From the NCBI GenBank assembly GCA_031459655.1, contig JAVKID010000003.1, positions 1 to 60,629 of the forward strand: a stretch of 60,629 bases of DNA. Direction: 5' to 3'. Below are positions 4,320 through 53,085 of this stretch, one piece after another; within the stretch, counting starts at the first letter, position 1; each line of letters opens with the position of its first letter. A program made the translations under genes and the position numbers. The notes beneath the pieces are model-generated. The model worked only from the letters and a program-made list of their open reading frames with translations, did not search any database and was not told the origin of the DNA. The DNA is from Candidatus Fervidifonticultor octavus. GTDB taxonomy: Bacteria > Sysuimicrobiota > Sysuimicrobiia > Sysuimicrobiales > Humicultoraceae.

Positions 4320-5266
4320 CCGTACTGGATCCGCGGGTCGATCACGGCGTAGAGGAGGTCCACGAGGAAGTTCAACACCATGAACAGCGCCGCGCCCAGC
4401 AGAATGCTCCCCTGCACCACAGGGTAGTCCCGCTGGAAGATGGCATCCAGGAGCAGCCGGCCGATCCCCGGCAGGTTGAAGACGTCCTCGACCACGACGA
4501 TGCCGCCGAGGATGTAGCCCATCTGCACCCCGGCCACGGTGATGACGGGAATGAGCGCGTTCCGCAGCGCGTGGTGGGACACCACCTGCGGCTCCTGCGC
4601 GCCCTTGGCGCGCGCGGTCCGGATGTACTCCCGGCCGAGCACGTCCAGCATCGCCGACCGGGTCATGCGGCTGATCATGGCCGCCGTGGCCGTCCCCAGC
4701 GTCAGGGCCGGCAGGGCGATGATCTCCAGGTTCGTCCACGGATCCTCCCGCAGCGACACCCACTGGAGCGACGGCATCCACTGCAGGTGGATGGAGAACA
4801 GCAGGATCAGCAGCGTCCCCTGCCAGAACGCCGGGACCGACAGGCCCAGCGTCGAGACGAACCGGATGGCGCTGTCGGAGGGCGTGCCGCGCCGCACGGC
4901 AGCCAGCACGCCGAGGGGGATGCCGAGCACCAGCGACCAGGCCACGGCCAGCACGGCCAGCTCCGCCGAGACCGGCAGGCGCGAGAGGAACAGGGAGAGA
5001 ACGGGGCGGTTGCTGCGCCAGGAGTTCCCCAGGTCCCCGCGCAGCAACCCGGCCATCCACTCCACGTACTGCACGTACCACGGCCGGTCGAGCCCGAAGA
5101 ACTCCCGCAGGCTCCGGATCGTCTCCTCGCCCACCAGCGCGCTCTGCCCCAGCAACTGCTCCACCACGGTGCCCGGGATCAGCCGCATCATGGTGAACAC
5201 GATAGCGCTGACCCCGAGCAGCGTGGCCGCCATGGCGGCGAGCCGGCGCAGGACGTACGCGCGCAC
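4316..5266 (-). CDS. ABC peptide/nickel-type importer permease (DppB/OppB-like)
   Basis: 316-aa ORF starting MRAYVLRRLAAMAATLLGVSAIVFTMMRLIPG, with REYIRTARAKG; classic DppB layout. Confidence 0.9.
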   Translation of the reverse strand: MRAYVLRRLAAMAATLLGVSAIVFTMMRLIPGTVVEQLLGQSALVGEETIRSLREFFGLDRPWYVQYVEWMAGLLRGDLGNSWRSNRPVLSLFLSRLPVSAELAVLAVAWSLVLGIPLGVLAAVRRGTPSDSAIRFVSTLGLSVPAFWQGTLLILLFSIHLQWMPSLQWVSLREDPWTNLEIIALPALTLGTATAAMISRMTRSAMLDVLGREYIRTARAKGAQEPQVVSHHALRNALIPVITVAGVQMGYILGGIVVVEDVFNLPGIGRLLLDAIFQRDYPVVQGSILLGAALFMVLNFLVDLLYAVIDPRIQYG

Positions 5267-5275
5267 GCGGTGCGC

Positions 5276-6874
5276 CTACTCTTCGATCCAGACGTCCCTC
5301 AACCCGAACAGGAACCCTGTGGGATACGGCCGGAACCCCCTGACCTTCCGGTTCATGCTGTAGAGCAGGTTCGGCGCGTACAGCGGGATGCTGATGGGAT
5401 CCTCGGCCATGATCATCTGGATCCTATCGTAGATCGCCTTGCGCCGGTTCCGGTCCAGCGTCGTGCGCCCCTCGTCCAGCAGCCGGTCGACTTCGGCGTT
5501 GTTCCACCGGCGGAAGTCCATGCCCTTGGGCGGCGTGTGGTAGTGCCGGTAGAAGGCCTGATCGGGGTCGATGAAGCCGCCCCACTCGTTCATGGTGGGC
5601 ACGCTCTGCCGGGCGATCCAGTCGCGGATCCACACGCCGATGTCCACAGTCTCCACCCGCACGTCGAAGCCGACTTCCTTCAGGTTGTCGGCGATCACCT
5701 GCACCGAGGCGATCAGCGACGGGAAACCCACGATGTTGCGGATGACCAGCGGCACAGGCGGCCGCAGCCCGGCCCGCTGGAGGAACTCGCGGGCGCGGCC
5801 CACATCGCGCTTCTGGTTGGGCAGCCGATCCCGGGGCACCGCCCAGAACTCCATGGCGGGCGGGAGCACGCCCAGGGGCTTGCCCAGCCCGTCGCCGGCG
5901 ATGCGCAGGACCGCCTCCCGGTCGATCCCCACGGCGATGGCCCGGCGGACATCGGGGTTGCTGGTGGGCGCCATGTCTCCCATCAGATCGAGAACGACCC
6001 ACCGGATCCCCGGCGCCTGGACGTTGTTCAGCGCGCGGAGATGACGGATCAGGTTGAAGTTGACGCCGCTCTCGAACTGCGCCATGTCGATCTGACCGGT
6101 GCGCAGCGCGGCCACGATGGACGACTCGTCGGGGACGGCCTGGAACGTGATCCCGTCCAGGTAGGGCTTGCCGCGATCCCAGTAATCCGGGAACCGCCGG
6201 AGCACCAGGAGCCGGTTGGGCTCGAAGGTCTCGACCATGAACGGACCGGTGCCGACCGCGGCGTGCTGGAGTTCGCGGCCCGTCCTGACCGCGTCCTTGG
6301 GGATGACGGCGTTGTACTTGCCCGCCACGTTGACCAGGAACGTGGCCGTGGGCTCGTGGAGGACAAAGCGCAGCGTGTGGCGGTCGATGATGTCGATGCT
6401 CTTGATCATCACCAGGTCGCCGCGCCCTCCCGACCCGGTCCGGGGGTCCATGACCCGCTCATAGCTGAACTTGACGTCCTCGGCGTCCATCTCCTTGCCG
6501 TTGTGGAACCTGACGCCGCGGCGGAGGTAGAAGATGTACTCGGTGGCCGAGCGCTCCTCCCAGCGCTCGGCCAGTTGCGGCTTGGGGACCAGATCAAAGT
6601 CCACCCACACGAGGGTCTCGTAGAAGAGGAACTTGCGCCGCTGGTAGATGTCGGCACCCTCCAGGTGGGGCTCGATGCTGGCCGGCAGGGCTGCGCTCGC
6701 GAAGGTGATCCGGCCGCCGCGCCGCGGGGTCCCTGCGGCGGGCGCCGCCTGGGCGCTCCACAGGCGGTAGGGTGACAACACGCTCCCGGCGGCCAGGCCC
6801 AGCCCGGCGGTGCCGGCGAGCCTGAGGAACTCGCGGCGCTTGAGATCCCGTCCCTCCTGCGAGGGTTCGTCCAT
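5276..6874 (-). CDS. ABC transporter substrate-binding protein, family 5 (peptide/nickel type), Tat-type signal
   Basis: Only the last 532 codons of the 1064-aa ORF are protein-like. MDEPSQEGRDLKRREFLRLAGTAGLGLAAG is a twin-arginine signal. GGGAGGGAGG sits 5 nt upstream of the ATG at 6872-6874. TAG stop. Confidence 0.9.
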   Translation of the reverse strand: MDEPSQEGRDLKRREFLRLAGTAGLGLAAGSVLSPYRLWSAQAAPAAGTPRRGGRITFASAALPASIEPHLEGADIYQRRKFLFYETLVWVDFDLVPKPQLAERWEERSATEYIFYLRRGVRFHNGKEMDAEDVKFSYERVMDPRTGSGGRGDLVMIKSIDIIDRHTLRFVLHEPTATFLVNVAGKYNAVIPKDAVRTGRELQHAAVGTGPFMVETFEPNRLLVLRRFPDYWDRGKPYLDGITFQAVPDESSIVAALRTGQIDMAQFESGVNFNLIRHLRALNNVQAPGIRWVVLDLMGDMAPTSNPDVRRAIAVGIDREAVLRIAGDGLGKPLGVLPPAMEFWAVPRDRLPNQKRDVGRAREFLQRAGLRPPVPLVIRNIVGFPSLIASVQVIADNLKEVGFDVRVETVDIGVWIRDWIARQSVPTMNEWGGFIDPDQAFYRHYHTPPKGMDFRRWNNAEVDRLLDEGRTTLDRNRRKAIYDRIQMIMAEDPISIPLYAPNLLYSMNRKVRGFRPYPTGFLFGLRDVWIEE

Positions 6875-15208: not shown

Positions 15209-15290
15209 CCTCCGATAAAGGCAAACCCGCCGCGAGGTGGGGACGCAAAGCCACAGGACCCCTCTGGGGTCGGCTGGGTTGCCGAAGAGG
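15209..15290 (+). promoter_or_regulatory. c-di-GMP-I (GEMM-I) riboswitch aptamer
   Basis: CCUCCGAUAAAGGCAAACCCGCC-GCGA-GGUGGGGACGCAAAGCCACAGGACCCC-UCU-GGGGUCGGCUGGGUUGCCGAAGAGG. This has the same block order as the Vc2 aptamer as I recall it: GGCAAACC, a GNRA-capped hairpin, GGGACGCAAAGCC, a second hairpin, GGGUU.CCGA. A second copy with compensatory stem changes lies at 52263-52349. Confidence 0.8.
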
Positions 15291-15350: not shown

Positions 15351-15944
15351 ATGACCGTCGAGAGCATGCTCGCCGAAGTCGCCGGACTCGTTGACGTCCA
15401 GTGCCCGTGGCCGGAGGGGCATCCACGGCGTGTGGCCGGATACTGCGCCCACCTGGCTTCGGCGGCTGCTCTCGACGGGATCGCCACGGCGACCCTCGTC
15501 AGGGCCGCCCTCCTCCACGAGATCGGCAAACTGGGCATCTCCGAGCAGGTCCTGCGCAAGGCCGACCGGCTGACCCAGGAGGAGTACGCGGAGGTCAAAC
15601 GCCACCCCGTCCTGGGGGCCGAGATGTGCCGGCCGCTCCCCGACGGCGAGGCCATCGCGGCGATTGTCCGCAGTCACCACGAACACTGGAACGGCGAAGG
15701 CTATCCCGATGGTCTGGCCGGGGAGGCGATCCCGCTGGGCGCCCGGATCCTGGCCATCGCCGACGCCTACGACACCCTGACCATGGACCGGCCGTGGCGG
15801 CCGGCCTACACGCCGGAGGAGGCTTTGCAGATCCTCTGGTTTGGGGCCGACACACAGTGGGATCCCCGGCTGGTCGAATTGTTCGATCGGGTGGCGCGCT
15901 CGCGGTTCCTCACGGGCGCTCAGGTCTCCAATAGCGCCGCCTAG
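15351..15944 (+). CDS. stand-alone HD-GYP domain protein (c-di-GMP phosphodiesterase family)
   Basis: 197 aa from ATG 15351 (GGAGGGGG 7 nt upstream). EGHPRRVAGY, LLHEIGK, RSHHEHWNGEGYPDGL and ILAIADAYD blocks. The canonical HD dyad reads HE. Confidence 0.85.
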   Translation: MTVESMLAEVAGLVDVQCPWPEGHPRRVAGYCAHLASAAALDGIATATLVRAALLHEIGKLGISEQVLRKADRLTQEEYAEVKRHPVLGAEMCRPLPDGEAIAAIVRSHHEHWNGEGYPDGLAGEAIPLGARILAIADAYDTLTMDRPWRPAYTPEEALQILWFGADTQWDPRLVELFDRVARSRFLTGAQVSNSAA

Positions 15945-46785: not shown

Positions 46786-48525
46786 ATGAAGTACGAGGTG
46801 CTCGCTGAAGTCTATTCGAGGATCGAGGCCGTCACCTCCCGCCTGAGGATGACCGATCTGCTGGCCGATCTGTTCCGGCAGACGCCCAGAGGCCTGATCG
46901 GCCGTGTCACCTACCTGACCCAGGGGAAGCTCTACCCCGACTTCGAGGGGATCGAGATCGGCGTGGCCGAGAAGCTGGCGGTGCGCGCCCTGGCGCAGGC
47001 GACCGGCGAGGCGCCGCAGACCGTCGAGCGCCGCCTGGCGAAAGAGGGAGACCTCGGGCTGGTGGCGCAGGGGCTGCTGGCCAGGGGAAAGGAGCGGCGC
47101 CCGACGCTGAGCGTTGACGAGGTCTACCGGGAACTCGACCGGACGGCCCGCGCCGCCGGCAAGGGCGCGCAGGCCGTCAAGTTGGAGAGCATCGCGGCGT
47201 TGCTCCAGCAGGCCACCCCCCTCGAGGCGAAGTACCTGGTCCGCACCGTTACCGGGAAACTGCGCCTCGGCGTGGGCGACATGACGGTGCTGGACGCCCT
47301 GGCCATGGTCTTTGCCGGCGGCAAGGCGGCCCGCCGCGACCTGGAGCGGGCCTACAACCTGACCTCGGACCTGGGCCACGTCGCCGAAACCGTGGCATCC
47401 GGCGGCCTGGCCGCGGTCCGGAGGGTCCACGTCGTCGTCGGTAAGCCCATCCGTCCCATGCTGGCGGAGCGCCTGGGTGATCCCCAGGAGATCCTCCGCA
47501 AACTCGGCGGCCGGTGCATCGCCGAATACAAGTACGACGGGGAGCGCCTGCAGGTCCACAAGCGCGGCGGGCAGGTGGATCTGTTCTCGCGCCGGCTGGA
47601 GAAGATCACGCCCCAGTATCCTGATATCGTGGACCTGGTGCGGCGCGCGGTCAGTGCGCGGGACGCCATTCTGGAGGGCGAGGTGGTGGCCATCGACGCG
47701 GCCAGCGGCGACCTGCTGCCCTTCCAGGAACTGATGCACCGTCGCCGCAAGTACGGGATCGAAGAAGTCATGGCGCAGATTCCCACGGCACTGTACGCCT
47801 TCGACGCGCTCTACGTGAACGGGGAGGACCTCACCGAGCAGCCCTACCAGCAGCGCCACCGGGCGCTGGAGCGCGTGATCCGGCAAGGCGACCGGATCCG
47901 CCTGGCGGTCTTCCGGGAGGTGGCGTCGGTGCCGGAGCTGGAGGAGATGTTCGAACAGGCCGTCCAGGACGGCTGCGAGGGCCTCATCTGCAAGGCGACC
48001 GGCGGCGTCTACCAGGCGGGCGCCAGGGGCTGGCTGTGGATCAAGCTCAAGCGGGAGTACCGCAGCGAGATGACCGACGCGGTGGACCTGGTCCCCGTCG
48101 GGGCCTTCCACGGCCGGGGCCGGCGCGGCGGGACCTACGGCGCGCTGCTGATGGCGGCCTATGATCCCAAGACCGAGAGATTCCCGACTGTATGCAAACT
48201 GGGGTCGGGCTTCACCGACGAGTTCCTGGCGACCCTGCCGAAGACGCTGCGTCCCTACATCCGCCCCGACCGGCATCCGCGCGTGGACAGCCGGATGACC
48301 CCCGACGTCTGGCTGGAACCCGCCGTGGTCTACGAGGTCATCGGCGCCGAGATCACCCTCAGCCCCGTGCACACCGCCGGATGGGACGCCATCCGCCGGG
48401 ACAGCGGCCTGGCGATCCGGTTCCCGCGCTTCACCCGCGTCCGCGAGGACAAGAGCCCGACCGAGGCGACGACGGTGAAGGAGCTCCTCGACATGTACCG
48501 GCGGCGCCTCAAGAAGGCTGGGTGA
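46786..48525 (+). CDS. ATP-dependent DNA ligase, Lig1/archaeal type with N-terminal DNA-binding domain
   Basis: 579 aa. Motif I AEYKYDGERLQVH, LEGEVVAID, CEGLICK, WIKLKREY, and an OB-fold tail. Confidence 0.9.
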   Translation: MKYEVLAEVYSRIEAVTSRLRMTDLLADLFRQTPRGLIGRVTYLTQGKLYPDFEGIEIGVAEKLAVRALAQATGEAPQTVERRLAKEGDLGLVAQGLLARGKERRPTLSVDEVYRELDRTARAAGKGAQAVKLESIAALLQQATPLEAKYLVRTVTGKLRLGVGDMTVLDALAMVFAGGKAARRDLERAYNLTSDLGHVAETVASGGLAAVRRVHVVVGKPIRPMLAERLGDPQEILRKLGGRCIAEYKYDGERLQVHKRGGQVDLFSRRLEKITPQYPDIVDLVRRAVSARDAILEGEVVAIDAASGDLLPFQELMHRRRKYGIEEVMAQIPTALYAFDALYVNGEDLTEQPYQQRHRALERVIRQGDRIRLAVFREVASVPELEEMFEQAVQDGCEGLICKATGGVYQAGARGWLWIKLKREYRSEMTDAVDLVPVGAFHGRGRRGGTYGALLMAAYDPKTERFPTVCKLGSGFTDEFLATLPKTLRPYIRPDRHPRVDSRMTPDVWLEPAVVYEVIGAEITLSPVHTAGWDAIRRDSGLAIRFPRFTRVREDKSPTEATTVKELLDMYRRRLKKAG

Positions 48526-49175: not shown

Positions 49176-49754
49176 ATGACACGAATCCGATTCGTCATTC
49201 CCGTCCTCATCGCCGCGACCACAGCGCTGCTGACGCATTCGGCGGGAGCCGGGCCATCGCCCGTGCCCTCGCCCACGCCACCCCCGACCGTCGCCGCGCT
49301 GTCCCGCCTCAACGGTCCTGCGTTCGACACCGCGTTCATGCGCGAGCTCATCCCCGCCCACGAAGAGGCCATCGAGATCGCCATGGCCGCTACCCTGAAT
49401 GCCGACCATCCGGAACTCTTGCGCTGGAACCAGGTCATGATCGACCGCAAGAGCGGACAGGTCAGGCAGATGCTCGCGTGGCTCCAGCAGGTCGGCGCCT
49501 CGCCTGGGAAGCGCAACGCCAATGTGGTCACGGACCCCGTCAAGCGGATGCGCAGCCTGAGCGGCGCGGCCCTGGAGCGCGCCTACCTGCCGCTCATCGC
49601 CGCACACCTCGACCACAGCGTGGCGCTGGCGAAGGTGGCGACCGCCAGGGCCAGCCGGCAGGAACTCCGCGCGCTGGCGCAGACGGTGGTTGCGGTGGAG
49701 GGCCGCGAGGCCGCCATGCTGCGGGACTGGCTCAGAAAGTGGTATCCGAAGTAG
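49176..49754 (+). CDS. DUF305-family secreted four-helix protein
   Basis: 192 aa with a signal peptide. FDTAFMRELIPAHEEAIEIAM....HPELLRWNQVMIDRKSGQVRQMLAWL, and a second half-repeat. Confidence 0.8.
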   Translation: MTRIRFVIPVLIAATTALLTHSAGAGPSPVPSPTPPPTVAALSRLNGPAFDTAFMRELIPAHEEAIEIAMAATLNADHPELLRWNQVMIDRKSGQVRQMLAWLQQVGASPGKRNANVVTDPVKRMRSLSGAALERAYLPLIAAHLDHSVALAKVATARASRQELRALAQTVVAVEGREAAMLRDWLRKWYPK

Positions 49755-50472
49755 CCCCTGGCCGGGCCTCAGCAGGTGGGCGAGTGGTGTGTGCTCCCGT
49801 CTCCTCGTCGAAGCGCACCACGACGCGGTAGAGGCGGACCGACGGGAGCTCGACGGGTTCCAGGCGCTCCGCCCGGCCCGACCGGGTGAAGAGGCTGCCC
49901 CACGTCGAGACCGTCAGGGGCGTGCCCGTCTGCGGCGCCTGCGGCAGGAGCAGCACCGCACCCTGCTCGTTCCGATCCTCGGTCACGGCCCAGGCCTTGA
50001 TCCCTCCCTGCTCCACGAGGACCGGGAGGTAGCGCCGGCGGTGCCGCACCGTCGCCTCCCGCTGCTGCGCAGAGAGCGCTTCGAGGAACGCCAACGGATG
50101 ACGGCGGTCGTACCGGAACTTGCGCAGTCCGAACGGAATCAGGTAGTCGGTGATGAACCGGACGCTCCGCCCATTGACATGTTGCAACTGCAGGCCGACG
50201 CGGAAGCCGTCCGGGGTCTCCCGCACGAAGGCGACCCGTCCCTGGACGCCCATCCGGTCATTGAACCACAGGAACTGGACCCAGACGTGGAACACGTCGG
50301 GCGAGATGGTGGGGACCAGCAGGCCGGCGCCCTGCTCGTGGACGTCGATCAAGACGCCGACGCCGGTATGTCCCTGATCCGTCGCATACCGAACCGGGAC
50401 CGCCAGCGGGATCCGTGGAAGGGCGCGGCGCTCCATGCCTGTTCGACGGGCTGACCGCCAGAGAGGAACCAT
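49732..50472 (-). CDS. PilZ-domain protein with a second PilZ-like barrel (paralog of 31789-32451)
   Basis: ERRALPR (RRxxxR), DVHEQG (DxSxxG with S replaced by H), and shared blocks AVPVRYAT, GAGLLVP, LWF.DR.G..GRVAFVR, RYLPVLVEQG, GAVLLL. Start is ATG 50472 or ATG 50436. Confidence 0.7.
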   Translation of the reverse strand: MVPLWRSARRTGMERRALPRIPLAVPVRYATDQGHTGVGVLIDVHEQGAGLLVPTISPDVFHVWVQFLWFNDRMGVQGRVAFVRETPDGFRVGLQLQHVNGRSVRFITDYLIPFGLRKFRYDRRHPLAFLEALSAQQREATVRHRRRYLPVLVEQGGIKAWAVTEDRNEQGAVLLLPQAPQTGTPLTVSTWGSLFTRSGRAERLEPVELPSVRLYRVVVRFDEETGAHTTRPPAEARPGATSDTTF

Positions 50473-50542
50473 GGCTTCCCGACCCCCCACGGTGTATGCC
50501 CGTCGAACCAGACCCGTAGTCCGGGAGGAAGCGCTGTCCTCC

Positions 50543-50571
50543 TTGTGCTTCCGGCCGATCCGTGAGATAAT
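50543..50571 (+). promoter_or_regulatory. candidate promoter of cspA
   Basis: TTGTGC (50543-50548), 17-nt spacer, TG-extended GATAAT (50566-50571). Predicts a 5' UTR of roughly 55-60 nt. Confidence 0.4.
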
Positions 50572-50633
50572 GCGCAGGCATCGCAGAAGAGTTCGATGTC
50601 TGTGGTAGCCTGCAGGTAAAGGTGGCAACAAGC

Positions 50634-50840
50634 ATGGCAACAGGAACCGTCAAGTGGTTCAGCAGCGAGAAGGGGTATGGCTTCATCACCCCGGAGGACG
50701 GGTCGAAGGACCTGTTCGTGCACTTCAGCGGCATCGAGGGCGAAGGCTACAAGTCCCTCGTCGAGGGGCAGAAGGTCGAGTACACGCAGACGCAGGGTCA
50801 GAAGGGCCCCCAGGCGACTGGAGTCCGGCCGATCGGCTAA
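50634..50840 (+). CDS. cspA: cold-shock protein (CspA family)
   Basis: 68 aa. [34 protein letters not shown] (RNP1/RNP2 motifs). AAAGGTGG lies 8 nt upstream of ATG 50634. Confidence 0.95.
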
Positions 50841-50862
50841 CGCCAGGCTGTCCGCGAGACAC

Positions 50863-50897
50863 GACGGGGCCCGGGCGCGGTTCGCCCGGGCCCCGTC
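50863..50897. terminator. bidirectional GC-rich hairpin between the convergent cspA and secreted-protein genes
   Basis: Perfect 15-bp stem GACGGGGCCCGGGCG / CGCCCGGGCCCCGTC with a 5-nt loop CGGTT. No U-tract. Confidence 0.55.
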
Positions 50898-50921
50898 GCC
50901 TACCCGGCCGACCCTTCCGCC

Positions 50922-51647
50922 TCAGAGCCGGAGCCGGCGCTGGTCCTGGAGCATCCGCATCGCCTCCGCCTGCGTCAACCACGCGCCGGTCTGCTGGCGA
51001 ACCACGTAGCGCAGGAAACCTGGAACCGACATGTAGTACGTCTCCGGAGAGAAGGGCTTGAGCTGGTCCACCCGGGGCACGACCACGAGGCCCGGGTCCA
51101 CCTGGACCGGTGTGGCCGCCGCCGGTGCGGCCGCAGGAGCGTTGGAGACCGCCGGCACCGCCAGGGCGGCGGGGCGGACCTTCGGCGGATAGATGAGGAT
51201 GATCGACACGACCCCGCCGTCCAGGCCGAAGGCGATGCCCTGCTGGTCGTAGGCCATACCCATCAGGCCTTCCACCACAGCATCCACGAACTGCGTCCCG
51301 AAGACGCGGCGCACCTCACCGACAGCGGCGCCGACCGCGATCGCCTCTCCGGTTCGCATGAGGCCGTTCGTGGTGGAAACCGCACGAACGATGCCATCCG
51401 TCACGTACACGTTGATACCGTAGCGCGGAAAGGCGTACAGGGTCCCGTCCGGCAGCGCCCGCGTCTCGGCGGGGGGCCCGAGGCGGTTGAGCACCGAGGG
51501 GGCCGACTGCCCCAACCGGACGGCTGCGATCTCCTGCCCCGGCTGGATCTGGGTCGGCGGCGTCAGGTGTTGCTGGGCAATCACCGGGATCGCCAGCCCG
51601 AGGGTCATGACCAGCAAGAAGAGCAGCGCGTCGCGCGTCATCGTCAT
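50922..51647 (-). CDS. secreted hypothetical protein B (second gene of the riboswitch-controlled operon)
   Basis: 241 aa from MTMTRDALLFLLVMTLGLAIPVIAQ (signal peptide). AAGGAGG upstream of ATG 51645-51647. The N-terminal domain is paralogous to protein A (PG..I..V.LG....VLN..G ... V.....TTN....T). An Ala/Pro linker and an extra C-terminal domain follow. Confidence 0.65.
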   Translation of the reverse strand: MTMTRDALLFLLVMTLGLAIPVIAQQHLTPPTQIQPGQEIAAVRLGQSAPSVLNRLGPPAETRALPDGTLYAFPRYGINVYVTDGIVRAVSTTNGLMRTGEAIAVGAAVGEVRRVFGTQFVDAVVEGLMGMAYDQQGIAFGLDGGVVSIILIYPPKVRPAALAVPAVSNAPAAAPAAATPVQVDPGLVVVPRVDQLKPFSPETYYMSVPGFLRYVVRQQTGAWLTQAEAMRMLQDQRRLRL

Positions 51648-51709
51648 CGCCTCCTTGAGACCTTCATCCCAGGGCGCCGCGGGCCCGTCGCAGGCGGCGC
51701 CGCGTCCTG

Positions 51710-52201
51710 TTACCGCAGCCTTTCGCTGGGAAGCACCACCAGACCGACGATCCGGTCCCTCGACACCTCCAGGACCAGTCCCGCGAATGGGCACCGGACC
51801 TCGAACCCTGCGGCCGTCATGTGGACGGCACTGGCCTCACTCACCCCACCGTTGCACAAGGCCTGCCTCGCCCTGGTCCAGTTCTCGTCGCCGGGGCCGT
51901 ATCCCGATTGTGTCTTGTGGGCCGCGTTGGTAGTGCGGATACGGATCACGCGCTCGGTGGAGAGCCACACCGTCAACCCGTGGGCAGGGATTTCGAGCAC
52001 CTCGCGAGCCGGCCCCTGAGCCGGTCGCATACGTCCGCCGACTGCGTTGAGGACCTCGTGCTCGGTCATCCCGATGGCCACGGGGCCGATTCGCTTCCCG
52101 GGTTCGACGGCGAATGAGGCGGAGGACGATGGACCCGCGGCCAGGGCGACGGCTAGGAAGATGCCGACCACCGTCTGGATGCTCTGCCGACCCGGGCTCA
52201 C
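51710..52201 (-). CDS. secreted hypothetical protein A (first gene of the riboswitch-controlled operon)
   Basis: 163 aa. GTG start 52199-52201, signal peptide IQTVVGIFLAVALAAGPSSSA, TAA stop. No family recognised. Confidence 0.65.
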   Translation of the reverse strand: MSPGRQSIQTVVGIFLAVALAAGPSSSASFAVEPGKRIGPVAIGMTEHEVLNAVGGRMRPAQGPAREVLEIPAHGLTVWLSTERVIRIRTTNAAHKTQSGYGPGDENWTRARQALCNGGVSEASAVHMTAAGFEVRCPFAGLVLEVSRDRIVGLVVLPSERLR

Positions 52202-52225
52202 TGGCGGAGTGCCCCCGGAGTCCCG

Positions 52226-52256
52226 CGAAAGAAAACACGCCTCGACCGGGAGGCGT
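52226..52256 (-). terminator. intrinsic terminator (riboswitch expression platform)
   Basis: The minus strand reads ACGCCUC-CCGGUC-GAGGCGU followed by GUUUUCUUUCG, 25 nt upstream of the GTG start. No upstream minus-strand gene ends here. Confidence 0.65.
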
Positions 52257-52262
52257 CCGTGA

Positions 52263-52349
52263 CCTCCCCGTTCGGCAACCCGGCTGACTGGTCTCCCAGC
52301 CCCGTGGCTTTGCGAGCCGCCCTCGCGGGCGGGGTGCCTTTATCGCGGG
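52263..52349 (-). promoter_or_regulatory. c-di-GMP-I (GEMM-I) riboswitch aptamer, second copy
   Basis: The minus strand reads CCCGCGAUAAAGGCACCCCGCCC-GCGA-GGGCGGCUCGCAAAGCCACGGGGCUGG-GAGA-CCAGUCAGCCGGGUUGCCGAACGGGGAGG. It shares CGAUAAAGGCA, CGCAAAGCCAC and GGGUUGCCGAA with the copy at 15209-15290, and both hairpin stems differ by compensatory changes. Confidence 0.8.
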
Positions 52350-52515
52350 CAGTTTCTCTTGACTGTTGATATGCCCAGGTCCGACTCCTCCTAGGCGTCT
52401 GATGGCGCGAAGAGTGGGCACACAGAGGGACGGGATGGGTTGGAGGCTGAAAACAGGCTATGATGAGGAAGGCATCTGTGTCCGGCGTTTCCACCCAGAT
52501 CGCTCCTGAGGAGGA

Positions 52516-53085
52516 ATGACGATGCACACACGGCACGGGCGCAGCCGCATGGTGTGGGCCCTCTGTCTCTTCCTGGCCGGCAGCCTGACGCTGCCGGGCG
52601 CCGCCCAGGCCAGGACCGCGCAGGAGATCGACGCCAGCGTGAACGCCGCCCTGGACCGGCTGGTGAAGCAGGTCAGGGGATCCGGGGACGTCCTCCGGAT
52701 GGCCAAAGGGGTGCTCGTGTTCCCCGGGGTCATCCAGGCCGGCATCGGCATCGGGGGCGAGTACGGCGAGGGGGCCCTGCGCATCGGCAGAAGGACGGTC
52801 GCCTACTACAGCATCGCGTCGGCCTCCATCGGGTTCCAGCTGGGCGCCCAGAAGAAGGACATCATCCTCGTCTTCCTGCAGGAGGACGCCCTCAGGAAGT
52901 TTCAGGCCAGCGAGGGGTGGAAGATCGGGGTCGACGGCTCGGTCGTGCTCATCGACGTGGGTGCCGAGGGCTCCATCGATACGACGAAGCTCAACAAGCC
53001 CATCGTGGGATTCGTGGTGGGGCAGAAAGGCCTGATGTACAACCTGTCGCTGGAGGGGTCGAAGATCTCGAAGCTCAAGAAATAG
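52516..53085 (+). CDS. SYLF (DUF500/Ysc84-like) lipid-binding domain protein, secreted
   Basis: 189 aa with a signal peptide. GVLVFPGVIQAGIGIGGEYGEGAL...YYSIASASIGFQLGAQ...GWKIGVDGSV. ATG 52522 is better spaced from GGAGGA than ATG 52516. Confidence 0.8.
   Translation: MTMHTRHGRSRMVWALCLFLAGSLTLPGAAQARTAQEIDASVNAALDRLVKQVRGSGDVLRMAKGVLVFPGVIQAGIGIGGEYGEGALRIGRRTVAYYSIASASIGFQLGAQKKDIILVFLQEDALRKFQASEGWKIGVDGSVVLIDVGAEGSIDTTKLNKPIVGFVVGQKGLMYNLSLEGSKISKLKK

Follow-up and report, generated by a model that had tools for sequence, protein, structure and literature searches.

A predicted c-di-GMP-I riboswitch in the leader of two genes for exported proteins in Candidatus Fervidifonticultor octavus

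Introduction

Two neighbouring genes for small exported proteins in the genome of Candidatus Fervidifonticultor octavus are preceded by a 314-nt gap, raising the question of whether this gap holds an RNA element that controls them and, if so, in which direction. We examined this locus within a stretch of 60,629 nucleotides of a single contig (the window). The paper naming the genus Ca. Fervidifonticultor places it in CSP1-3/Sysuimicrobiota, and NCBI files the Ca. Fervidifonticultor-like lineage under Armatimonadota. A genomic study of the phylum makes no mention of c-di-GMP signalling, pili or riboswitches (PMC11604079). The gap (52202-52515) lies between the GTG start codon of the first gene at 52201 and a divergently oriented gene:

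52516-53085, plus strand: Ysc84-family gene (Pfam PF04366)
51710-52201, minus strand: gene A, an open reading frame of 163 aa with a GTG start
50922-51641, minus strand: gene B', an open reading frame of 239 aa (the database gene call P0004 is also 239 aa)

Long minus-strand open reading frames that overlap the gap are antisense shadows in DNA of 70% GC, and so the element described below sits in a true 5' leader.

Results and discussion

Identity of the aptamer

The original prediction had read a second GEMM-I element from the minus strand of this gap, and both the RNA that it quoted (52352-52227) and the length of the gap agree with the sequence. A search with cmscan against all 4227 families of Rfam 15 matched positions 52271-52348 of the minus strand to RF01051 (c-di-GMP-I) at 58.3 bits, against a gathering score of 35, with an E-value of 7.8e-9. 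The match is full length, covering model positions 1-87 of 87, which upheld the proposed GEMM-I identity. Including the closing helix P1, which lacks annotation in RF01051, the element comprised the following parts, all on the minus strand:

52271-52352: c-di-GMP-I (GEMM-I) aptamer, from the RF01051 match and the covariation of P1 and the first hairpin
52349-52344: P1 5' strand CCCGCG, with an optional CU extension at 52352-52351
52337-52312: first hairpin, with a GCGA loop
52310-52277: second hairpin

The first hairpin reads CCGCCC-GCGA-GGGCGG and is followed by the linker CGCAAAGCC and then by the second hairpin. P1 is formed by CCCGCG (52349-52344) with CG (52274-52273) and CGGG (52270-52267), separated by an AA bulge, and two further pairs (CU with AG) may lengthen it. 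In the Vc2 aptamer the two guanines of c-di-GMP pair with G20 and C92 (PMC5888326; PMC6140456), and A47 touches the ligand through its phosphate backbone (PMC5888326). The cmscan alignment, with the mapping taken from helix boundaries, places the equivalents of these residues at G 52338, an unpaired G directly 5' of the first helix, A 52311, directly 3' of the first helix, and C 52275, an unpaired C ahead of the P1 3' strand.

In common with Vc2-type GEMM-I RNAs, the element has a three-helix junction, G20, A47 and C92 equivalents, the AAA-type linker CGCAAAGCC, a position in a 5' leader and an intrinsic terminator after the aptamer. It differs from them in lacking the tetraloop receptor, in its GCGA (GYRA) loop, short second hairpin and ACC/CUC internal loop, in being very GC-rich (72%) and in coming from a hot-spring lineage; its ligand is predicted to be c-di-GMP. 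In the cmscan alignment the 11-nt tetraloop receptor of the 'receptor' subtype was absent, its columns being gapped, and the loop was GCGA rather than GAAA. This does not exclude the element from the class; it places it in the receptor-less GYRA subtype, which is part of the GEMM family (Weinberg et al., PMC1950547).

The first-hairpin internal loop is non-consensus (ACC/CUC in place of AAA/GAC). As specificity variants exist within the family (PMC6140456), the aptamer might instead sense another cyclic dinucleotide, such as 3'3'-cGAMP in the manner of GEMM-Ib, or a variant-class ligand, and Rfam put the sister copy elsewhere in the window (copy 1, 15211-15287, plus strand) under the variant family RF03167 (c-di-GMP-I-GGC). 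Geobacter GEMM-Ib RNAs (e.g. Gs1761) share the fold and also regulate pili-related and extracellular proteins. These cGAMP-sensing RNAs carry A at position 20 (PMC6140456), whereas the aligned position is G in the 52271-52352 element and, by cmscan alignment, in both copies of the window, so that c-di-GMP is the predicted ligand. The hallmark of RF03167, a G replacing A47 (model consensus line CGCGAAGCC), was likewise absent, as both copies read CGCAAAGCC; copy 1 has A where the RF03167 consensus, read from the alignment, has G, and its assignment to RF03167 probably reflects a scoring artefact. At the C92 equivalent the element carries C, the window contains c-di-GMP turnover and sensing genes (HD-GYP and PilZ), and about 10 of the 73 related sequences have a CC/YY variant of the internal loop, the rest of their core being canonical. 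We rejected the variant-ligand reading on the canonical G20, A47 and C92 equivalents and regard it as very improbable. Judged by its sequence, the element is a genuine but ordinary class-I c-di-GMP riboswitch with c-di-GMP as predicted ligand. The class is well known and the element is within reach of standard annotation.

A conserved RNA fold rather than a DNA repeat

Besides the element at 52271-52348, the window holds one other c-di-GMP-I element, copy 1, which scored 68.6 bits with RF03167 as its best-scoring model. The second local copy claimed in the original prediction was therefore real, and the compensatory stem differences between the copies were as described. The first hairpin is CCCGCC/GGUGGG in one and CCGCCC/GGGCGG in the other, with two pairs changed on both sides; in the lower second hairpin a single A-U pair is replaced by G-C, and the distal stem, though wholly different, is still paired. 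The single-stranded blocks are identical. Identical single-stranded blocks with compensatory stem changes are the opposite of what a DNA repeat would give.

We extended the comparison with a degenerate pattern of the conserved blocks, which had more than 120 metagenomic instances, 80 of which (loci L035-L114) were retrieved. The resulting set of 73 distinct sequences comprised 71 from the metagenome scan and the two window copies. Across this set the four free pairs of the first hairpin were paired in 291 of 292 cells, with 40 different stems, compared with 177 +/- 6 paired cells when partners were permuted; pairing of the first hairpin is far beyond chance. The 6-bp P1 covaries across the 71 relatives. 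Their flanks had a mean duplex energy of -8.69 kcal/mol, against -7.06 +/- 0.27 kcal/mol for permuted flanks, and none of 200 permutations reached the observed value. Folding of the whole leader was no better than that of shuffled sequences (z-scores of -1.36 and -1.14), and the argument accordingly rests on the covariance model and on constrained folds, not on overall stability. Open reading frames after the 80 metagenomic aptamers were in many cases signal-peptide-like by heuristic calling, which in high-GC DNA proved too noisy to support a census of the regulon.

The closest public genome, Ca. F. sextus (GCA_031459875.1), has the same locus, with a riboswitch scoring 59.9 bits. The aptamer is 92.8% identical between the two genomes and the expression platform 95.6%, compared with 82% for third codon positions of gene A, 79% for the A-B spacer and 67% for the far-upstream leader. 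Changes in the aptamer were confined to loops or were one-sided (G.U to G-C), and the sole difference in the terminator was one G to T change that lengthens the U-tract. The aptamer and platform appear to be under selection, their identity exceeding that of both the far-upstream leader and the third codon positions of gene A.

These comparisons bear on whether the element might be a GEMM-like sequence that arose by chance or is in decay, or else a DNA repeat, in each case without a part in regulation. In favour of this reading, the A-B' gene pair is confined to one lineage and the element is missing from its relatives. Set against this are the full-length model match at E 7.8e-9, the restriction of substitutions relative to F. 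sextus to structure-neutral ones with conservation above that of synonymous sites, and the two local copies with common single-stranded blocks and compensatory stems. The idea is already effectively refuted, and we give it next to no weight.

Expression platform and switching direction

Downstream of the aptamer, the minus strand carried a set of overlapping pairing elements:

52262-52274, minus strand: switching sequence, read from the sequence and from constrained folds
52248-52254, minus strand: antiterminator 3' arm GCCUCCC, from the unconstrained minimum free energy (MFE) structure of the nascent RNA
52227-52256, minus strand: intrinsic terminator, from a terminator scan

The terminator stem pairs ACGCCUC (52256-52250) with GAGGCGU (52243-52237) around the loop CCGGUC, followed by the U-tract GUUUUCUUUC (52236-52227), and ends 25 nt before GTG 52201. 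The terminator of the original prediction was recovered at the same coordinates by an independent terminator scan, which by itself reported ACGCCTC-CCGGTC-GAGGCGT and then GTTTTCTTTC at 52256-52227; the scan found 3 sites against 0.8 expected in shuffles. A terminator-like hairpin on the plus strand (52335-52351) is the complement of the 5' part of the aptamer with no plus-strand gene upstream, and was treated as chance. The antiterminator 5' arm GGGAGGU (52268-52262) overlaps the P1 3' strand (CG 52274-52273 and CGGG 52270-52267, extendable to 52264), and GCCUC (52254-52250) is common to the antiterminator 3' arm and the terminator 5' arm.

In unconstrained MFE folding of the nascent RNA, the hairpin GGGAGGU/GCCUCCC formed at every stage of synthesis at 37, 55, 65 and 75 C, occupying five nucleotides of the terminator 5' arm. 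When P1 was enforced in constrained folding, the terminator replaced the antiterminator at all four temperatures. Taken alone, the two hairpins have equal energies (-11.0 kcal/mol), and the ligand-free preference for the antiterminated state was only 0.7-2.3 kcal/mol, a gap that, on these modelled energies, would be easily overturned by tight ligand binding. The minimal P1 shares only 2 nt with the antiterminator, a number that rises to 5 nt when P1 gains its two-pair extension, so mutual exclusion rests partly on the energy model.

From this arrangement we propose the following mechanism. Without ligand, GGGAGGU just 3' of the aptamer would pair with GCCUCCC, occupying the terminator 5' arm and allowing RNA polymerase to read through into genes A and B'. 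With c-di-GMP bound, P1 (CCCGCG with CG-AA-CGGG, with two more pairs possible) would lock and take up the G-rich segment, the terminator ACGCCUC/GAGGCGU with its U-tract would form, and transcription would stop 25 nt before the start codon. High c-di-GMP would thereby be likely to turn down a function of the cell envelope or surface. The OFF direction is the most likely one for this standard architecture, and it fits the constrained folds without being proved by them. The OFF switch of the original prediction thus agrees with constrained folding at 37-75 C, as an in-silico result.

Comparative material for the platform consists of only one orthologue (F. sextus) and one analogue, from metagenomic locus L106. 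In the latter the first hairpin is almost identical and the P1/antiterminator/terminator logic is kept with different terminator letters (CGGGGAGG, then GCGCCTTCC/GGAAGGCGT and a T-run). The gene that follows its GEMM-I, after a leader of ~240 nt, is a NusG paralogue (4954-5520, plus strand; PF02357, E 4.8e-13).

A different read-out from the same, real aptamer has to be weighed: the switch could be ON, translational or Rho-dependent, or the terminator could attenuate constitutively, uncoupled from P1. The short overlap between P1 and the antiterminator leaves room for this, and in the full-length MFE structure the P1 5' strand CCCGCGA pairs with UCGCGGG (52228-52222), just upstream of a weak ribosome-binding region, a pairing that could couple the state of the aptamer to translation. 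Moreover, a terminator-like feature was present in only 17 of 73 related aptamers, other platforms being common in the subclass. On the other side, the terminator formed at every temperature folded with P1 enforced and the antiterminator without P1, and the textbook OFF arrangement is kept almost to the letter in F. sextus. Copy 1 shows a contrasting ON design, in which one and the same segment serves as P1 3' strand and as terminator 5' arm; the two designs can therefore be told apart. We therefore consider a different read-out unlikely, and judge it probable that this receptor-less GYRA GEMM-I is functional and acts as an OFF switch in the 5' leader of the two-gene operon A-B'.

Among the wider set of aptamers (L035-L114), many had a pyrimidine-rich P1 5' strand (CCUUCC, ACCUCC, CCCUCC) and a GGAGG-like 3' strand. 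Together with the low frequency of terminator-like features, this suggests that P1 in that subtype often doubles as a Shine-Dalgarno sequestering element.

Further upstream, a short block stood out in the comparison with F. sextus:

52366-52409, minus strand: 44-nt block directly preceding the aptamer, with 100% identity to its Ca. F. sextus counterpart between diverged flanks

A scan of 50500-53000 found no sigma-70 promoter consensus. The block may be a candidate promoter or operator, or an extra pairing partner; it contains GACGCCU, a sequence that recurs as the core of the terminator 5' arm. Transcription probably starts between the block and 52352.

The exported proteins A and B'

The product of gene A carries a Sec-type signal peptide (…LAAGPSSSA|S) along with two cysteines, C116 and C137, that are conserved and, in the homologue alignment, invariant. 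Only 2 homologues were found among 5.8 billion clusters. For B', the spacing to AAGGAGG and the database gene call indicate that the second ATG, at 51641, is the likely start. The protein has a signal peptide (…PVIA|QQ), a tandem domain of helix plus four strands, a Pro/Ala linker and a C-terminal two-helix domain. In the spacer between the two genes (51648-51709, minus strand), a GC-rich inverted repeat (CAGG..GCGGCGCC…GCGGCGCCCTGG) with no U-tract directly precedes the B' ribosome-binding site AAGGAGG.

Direct family assignment of A and B' was abandoned, as neither protein matched Pfam (at E<=0.1) or NCBIfam. The two are related to each other: homology links the N-terminal half of A with the first repeat of B, with a BLASTP E-value of 2e-6 and an hhalign probability of 95.8% against the B family. 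A profile search with B against 1.84 billion representatives returned 917 relatives, the remote ones of which carry PF14504 (CAP_assoc_N) over the matched stretch. An AlphaFold model of B', built from 28 family members, had a mean pLDDT of 64 (70-89 in most of the domain) and comprised two repeats, each of one helix and a four-stranded sheet, together with a Pro/Ala linker that is disordered and a pair of helices at the C terminus. With this model as query (pLDDT 64), the best Foldseek matches in the PDB were 4h0a, 4ifa and 2qzb as well as BLIP-like proteins, at E-values of 1.6e-4 to 1e-3 and TM-scores of only 0.33-0.57. The model of gene A, from a 3-sequence alignment, reached a pLDDT of 44 and was left out of the fold search.

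Sequence and predicted fold converge on a putative BLIP-like/CAP_assoc_N-like fold for the exported domain that A and B' share. CAP_assoc_N (PF14504) and BLIP-like proteins (4h0a, 4ifa, 2qzb YfeY, 3d4e, 3gmx) resemble the B' model in its tandem helix and four-stranded sheet and are all exported; 4h0a and 4ifa are SCP/CAP proteins whose N-terminal domains match B'. B' differs in adding the Pro/Ala linker and the C-terminal two-helix domain, and among these relatives (4h0a, 4ifa, 2qzb, 3d4e, 3gmx) there is none with a defined function. The two genes had been described as signal-peptide paralogues with a shared domain and no nameable family. The first half of this description held, by BLASTP and hhalign. 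The second held only in part, as the shared domain is predicted to be BLIP-like/CAP_assoc_N-like and B' is a paralogue of a gene from type IV pilus clusters. The C-terminal ~55 aa of B' (50922-51100, minus strand) form a two-helix domain that, in the library of 1.84 billion representatives, also occurs as stand-alone proteins of ~60-125 aa (e.g. P0117, P0125 and P0134) and is without a Pfam family.

The B family and type IV pilus clusters

The B family has ~67 members, all in the Ca. Fervidifonticultor-like lineage (CSP1-3/Sysuimicrobiota). In 25 of 25 other genomic loci, and on one further contig, the canonical B gene lies between pilD and GGDEF-pilO-pilN-pilM, divergent from the prepilin peptidase gene pilD and convergent with the diguanylate cyclase (GGDEF) gene that precedes pilO-pilN-pilM; on the far side of pilD are a PilP-like gene and the secretin. 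This placement spans several candidate genera (L005-L029, L031, L033, L034). Such synteny suggests that the canonical B gene is an unrecognised component of the pilus cluster. B' itself is outside the pilus cluster and adjoins gene A elsewhere, so a pilus role for B' would follow from paralogy, and its putative link to pili comes via paralogy and synteny. Ca. F. sextus has both copies, the canonical pilus-cluster B and the riboswitch-linked B'. In a neighbour-joining tree the branch of the riboswitch-linked pair was long and lay close to the base of the Fervidifonticultor-like clade, a placement in which old duplication and fast divergence are inseparable.

The expectation that homologues elsewhere might also be preceded by GEMM-I did not hold. 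Rfam scans found no GEMM-I within 4 kb at the 25 other B-family loci or at the distant A homologue (L003), so the link between gene and riboswitch is not conserved. A conserved regulon of GEMM-I and this gene family was rejected accordingly, since across 27 B-family loci and the distant A homologue GEMM-I occurred only in the syntenic orthologue. In the reverse direction, tblastn of A and B against the 80 metagenomic loci with the same aptamer subtype gave no match. The wiring is lineage-restricted: with the other B loci in the pilus cluster and free of GEMM-I, A-B' appears to be a diverged duplicate that was placed under riboswitch control within this lineage.

GEMM elements upstream of pilM, pilO, pilQ, HD-GYP and GGDEF genes were listed in 2007, and control of pili-related, secreted and HD-GYP genes by GEMM has been described since then (PMC1950547). 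The theme of GEMM and pili is thus known, and the A/B' gene family is new as a target. Novelty is modest and lies in the target genes, in their paralogy to a pilus-cluster gene and in a pair of switches with opposite predicted logic in the genome of an uncultured phylum. We tentatively raise the possibility, which we consider unlikely, that the B family is a conserved extracytoplasmic part of the type IV pilus machinery in CSP1-3/Sysuimicrobiota, that A-B' is its c-di-GMP-repressed alternative and that the riboswitch swaps or tunes a pilus accessory factor in response to the level of the second messenger.

Copy 1 and other c-di-GMP genes in the window

Two further genes in the window are connected with c-di-GMP:

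15351-15944, plus strand: HD-GYP phosphodiesterase gene (HD_5 at 9e-43, motif HHEHWNGEGYP)
49732-50493, minus strand: PilZ-domain protein, candidate c-di-GMP receptor (PF07238, E 1.2e-8)

The terminator of copy 1 (-20.8 kcal/mol) was abolished when P1 was enforced, which predicts an ON switch for the HD-GYP gene; by these folds copy 1 looks like an ON switch. The aptamer subtype and single-stranded blocks of copy 1 and the 52271-52352 element are the same, whereas their predicted logic is opposite. The PilZ gene is two genes downstream of the A-B' operon, on the far side of a cold-shock gene in the opposite orientation, and its location is syntenic in Ca. F. sextus. Near the locus, and unrelated to the riboswitch, 46786-48525 (plus strand) encodes a 579-aa ATP-dependent DNA ligase, a call made from the syntenic 579-aa gene of locus L001 with Pfam DNA_ligase_A_N/M/C.

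Implications

The 52271-52352 element leaves existing knowledge of how GEMM-I works unchanged. A phylum known only from metagenomes gains a GEMM-I riboswitch that is well supported and whose expression platform can be read, and a regulatory handle is gained on two otherwise anonymous exported proteins. Two switches of one subtype with opposite predicted logic are a natural pair for the study of platform design at high temperature. ON control of an HD-GYP phosphodiesterase would give homeostatic feedback on c-di-GMP and, if true, the A-B' switch and the HD-GYP switch of opposite logic would together make up a small c-di-GMP circuit built on RNA switches in a thermophilic phylum that is uncultured. 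The paralogy of A-B' to a gene embedded among pilus and GGDEF genes is a lead towards a new pilus-associated protein family.
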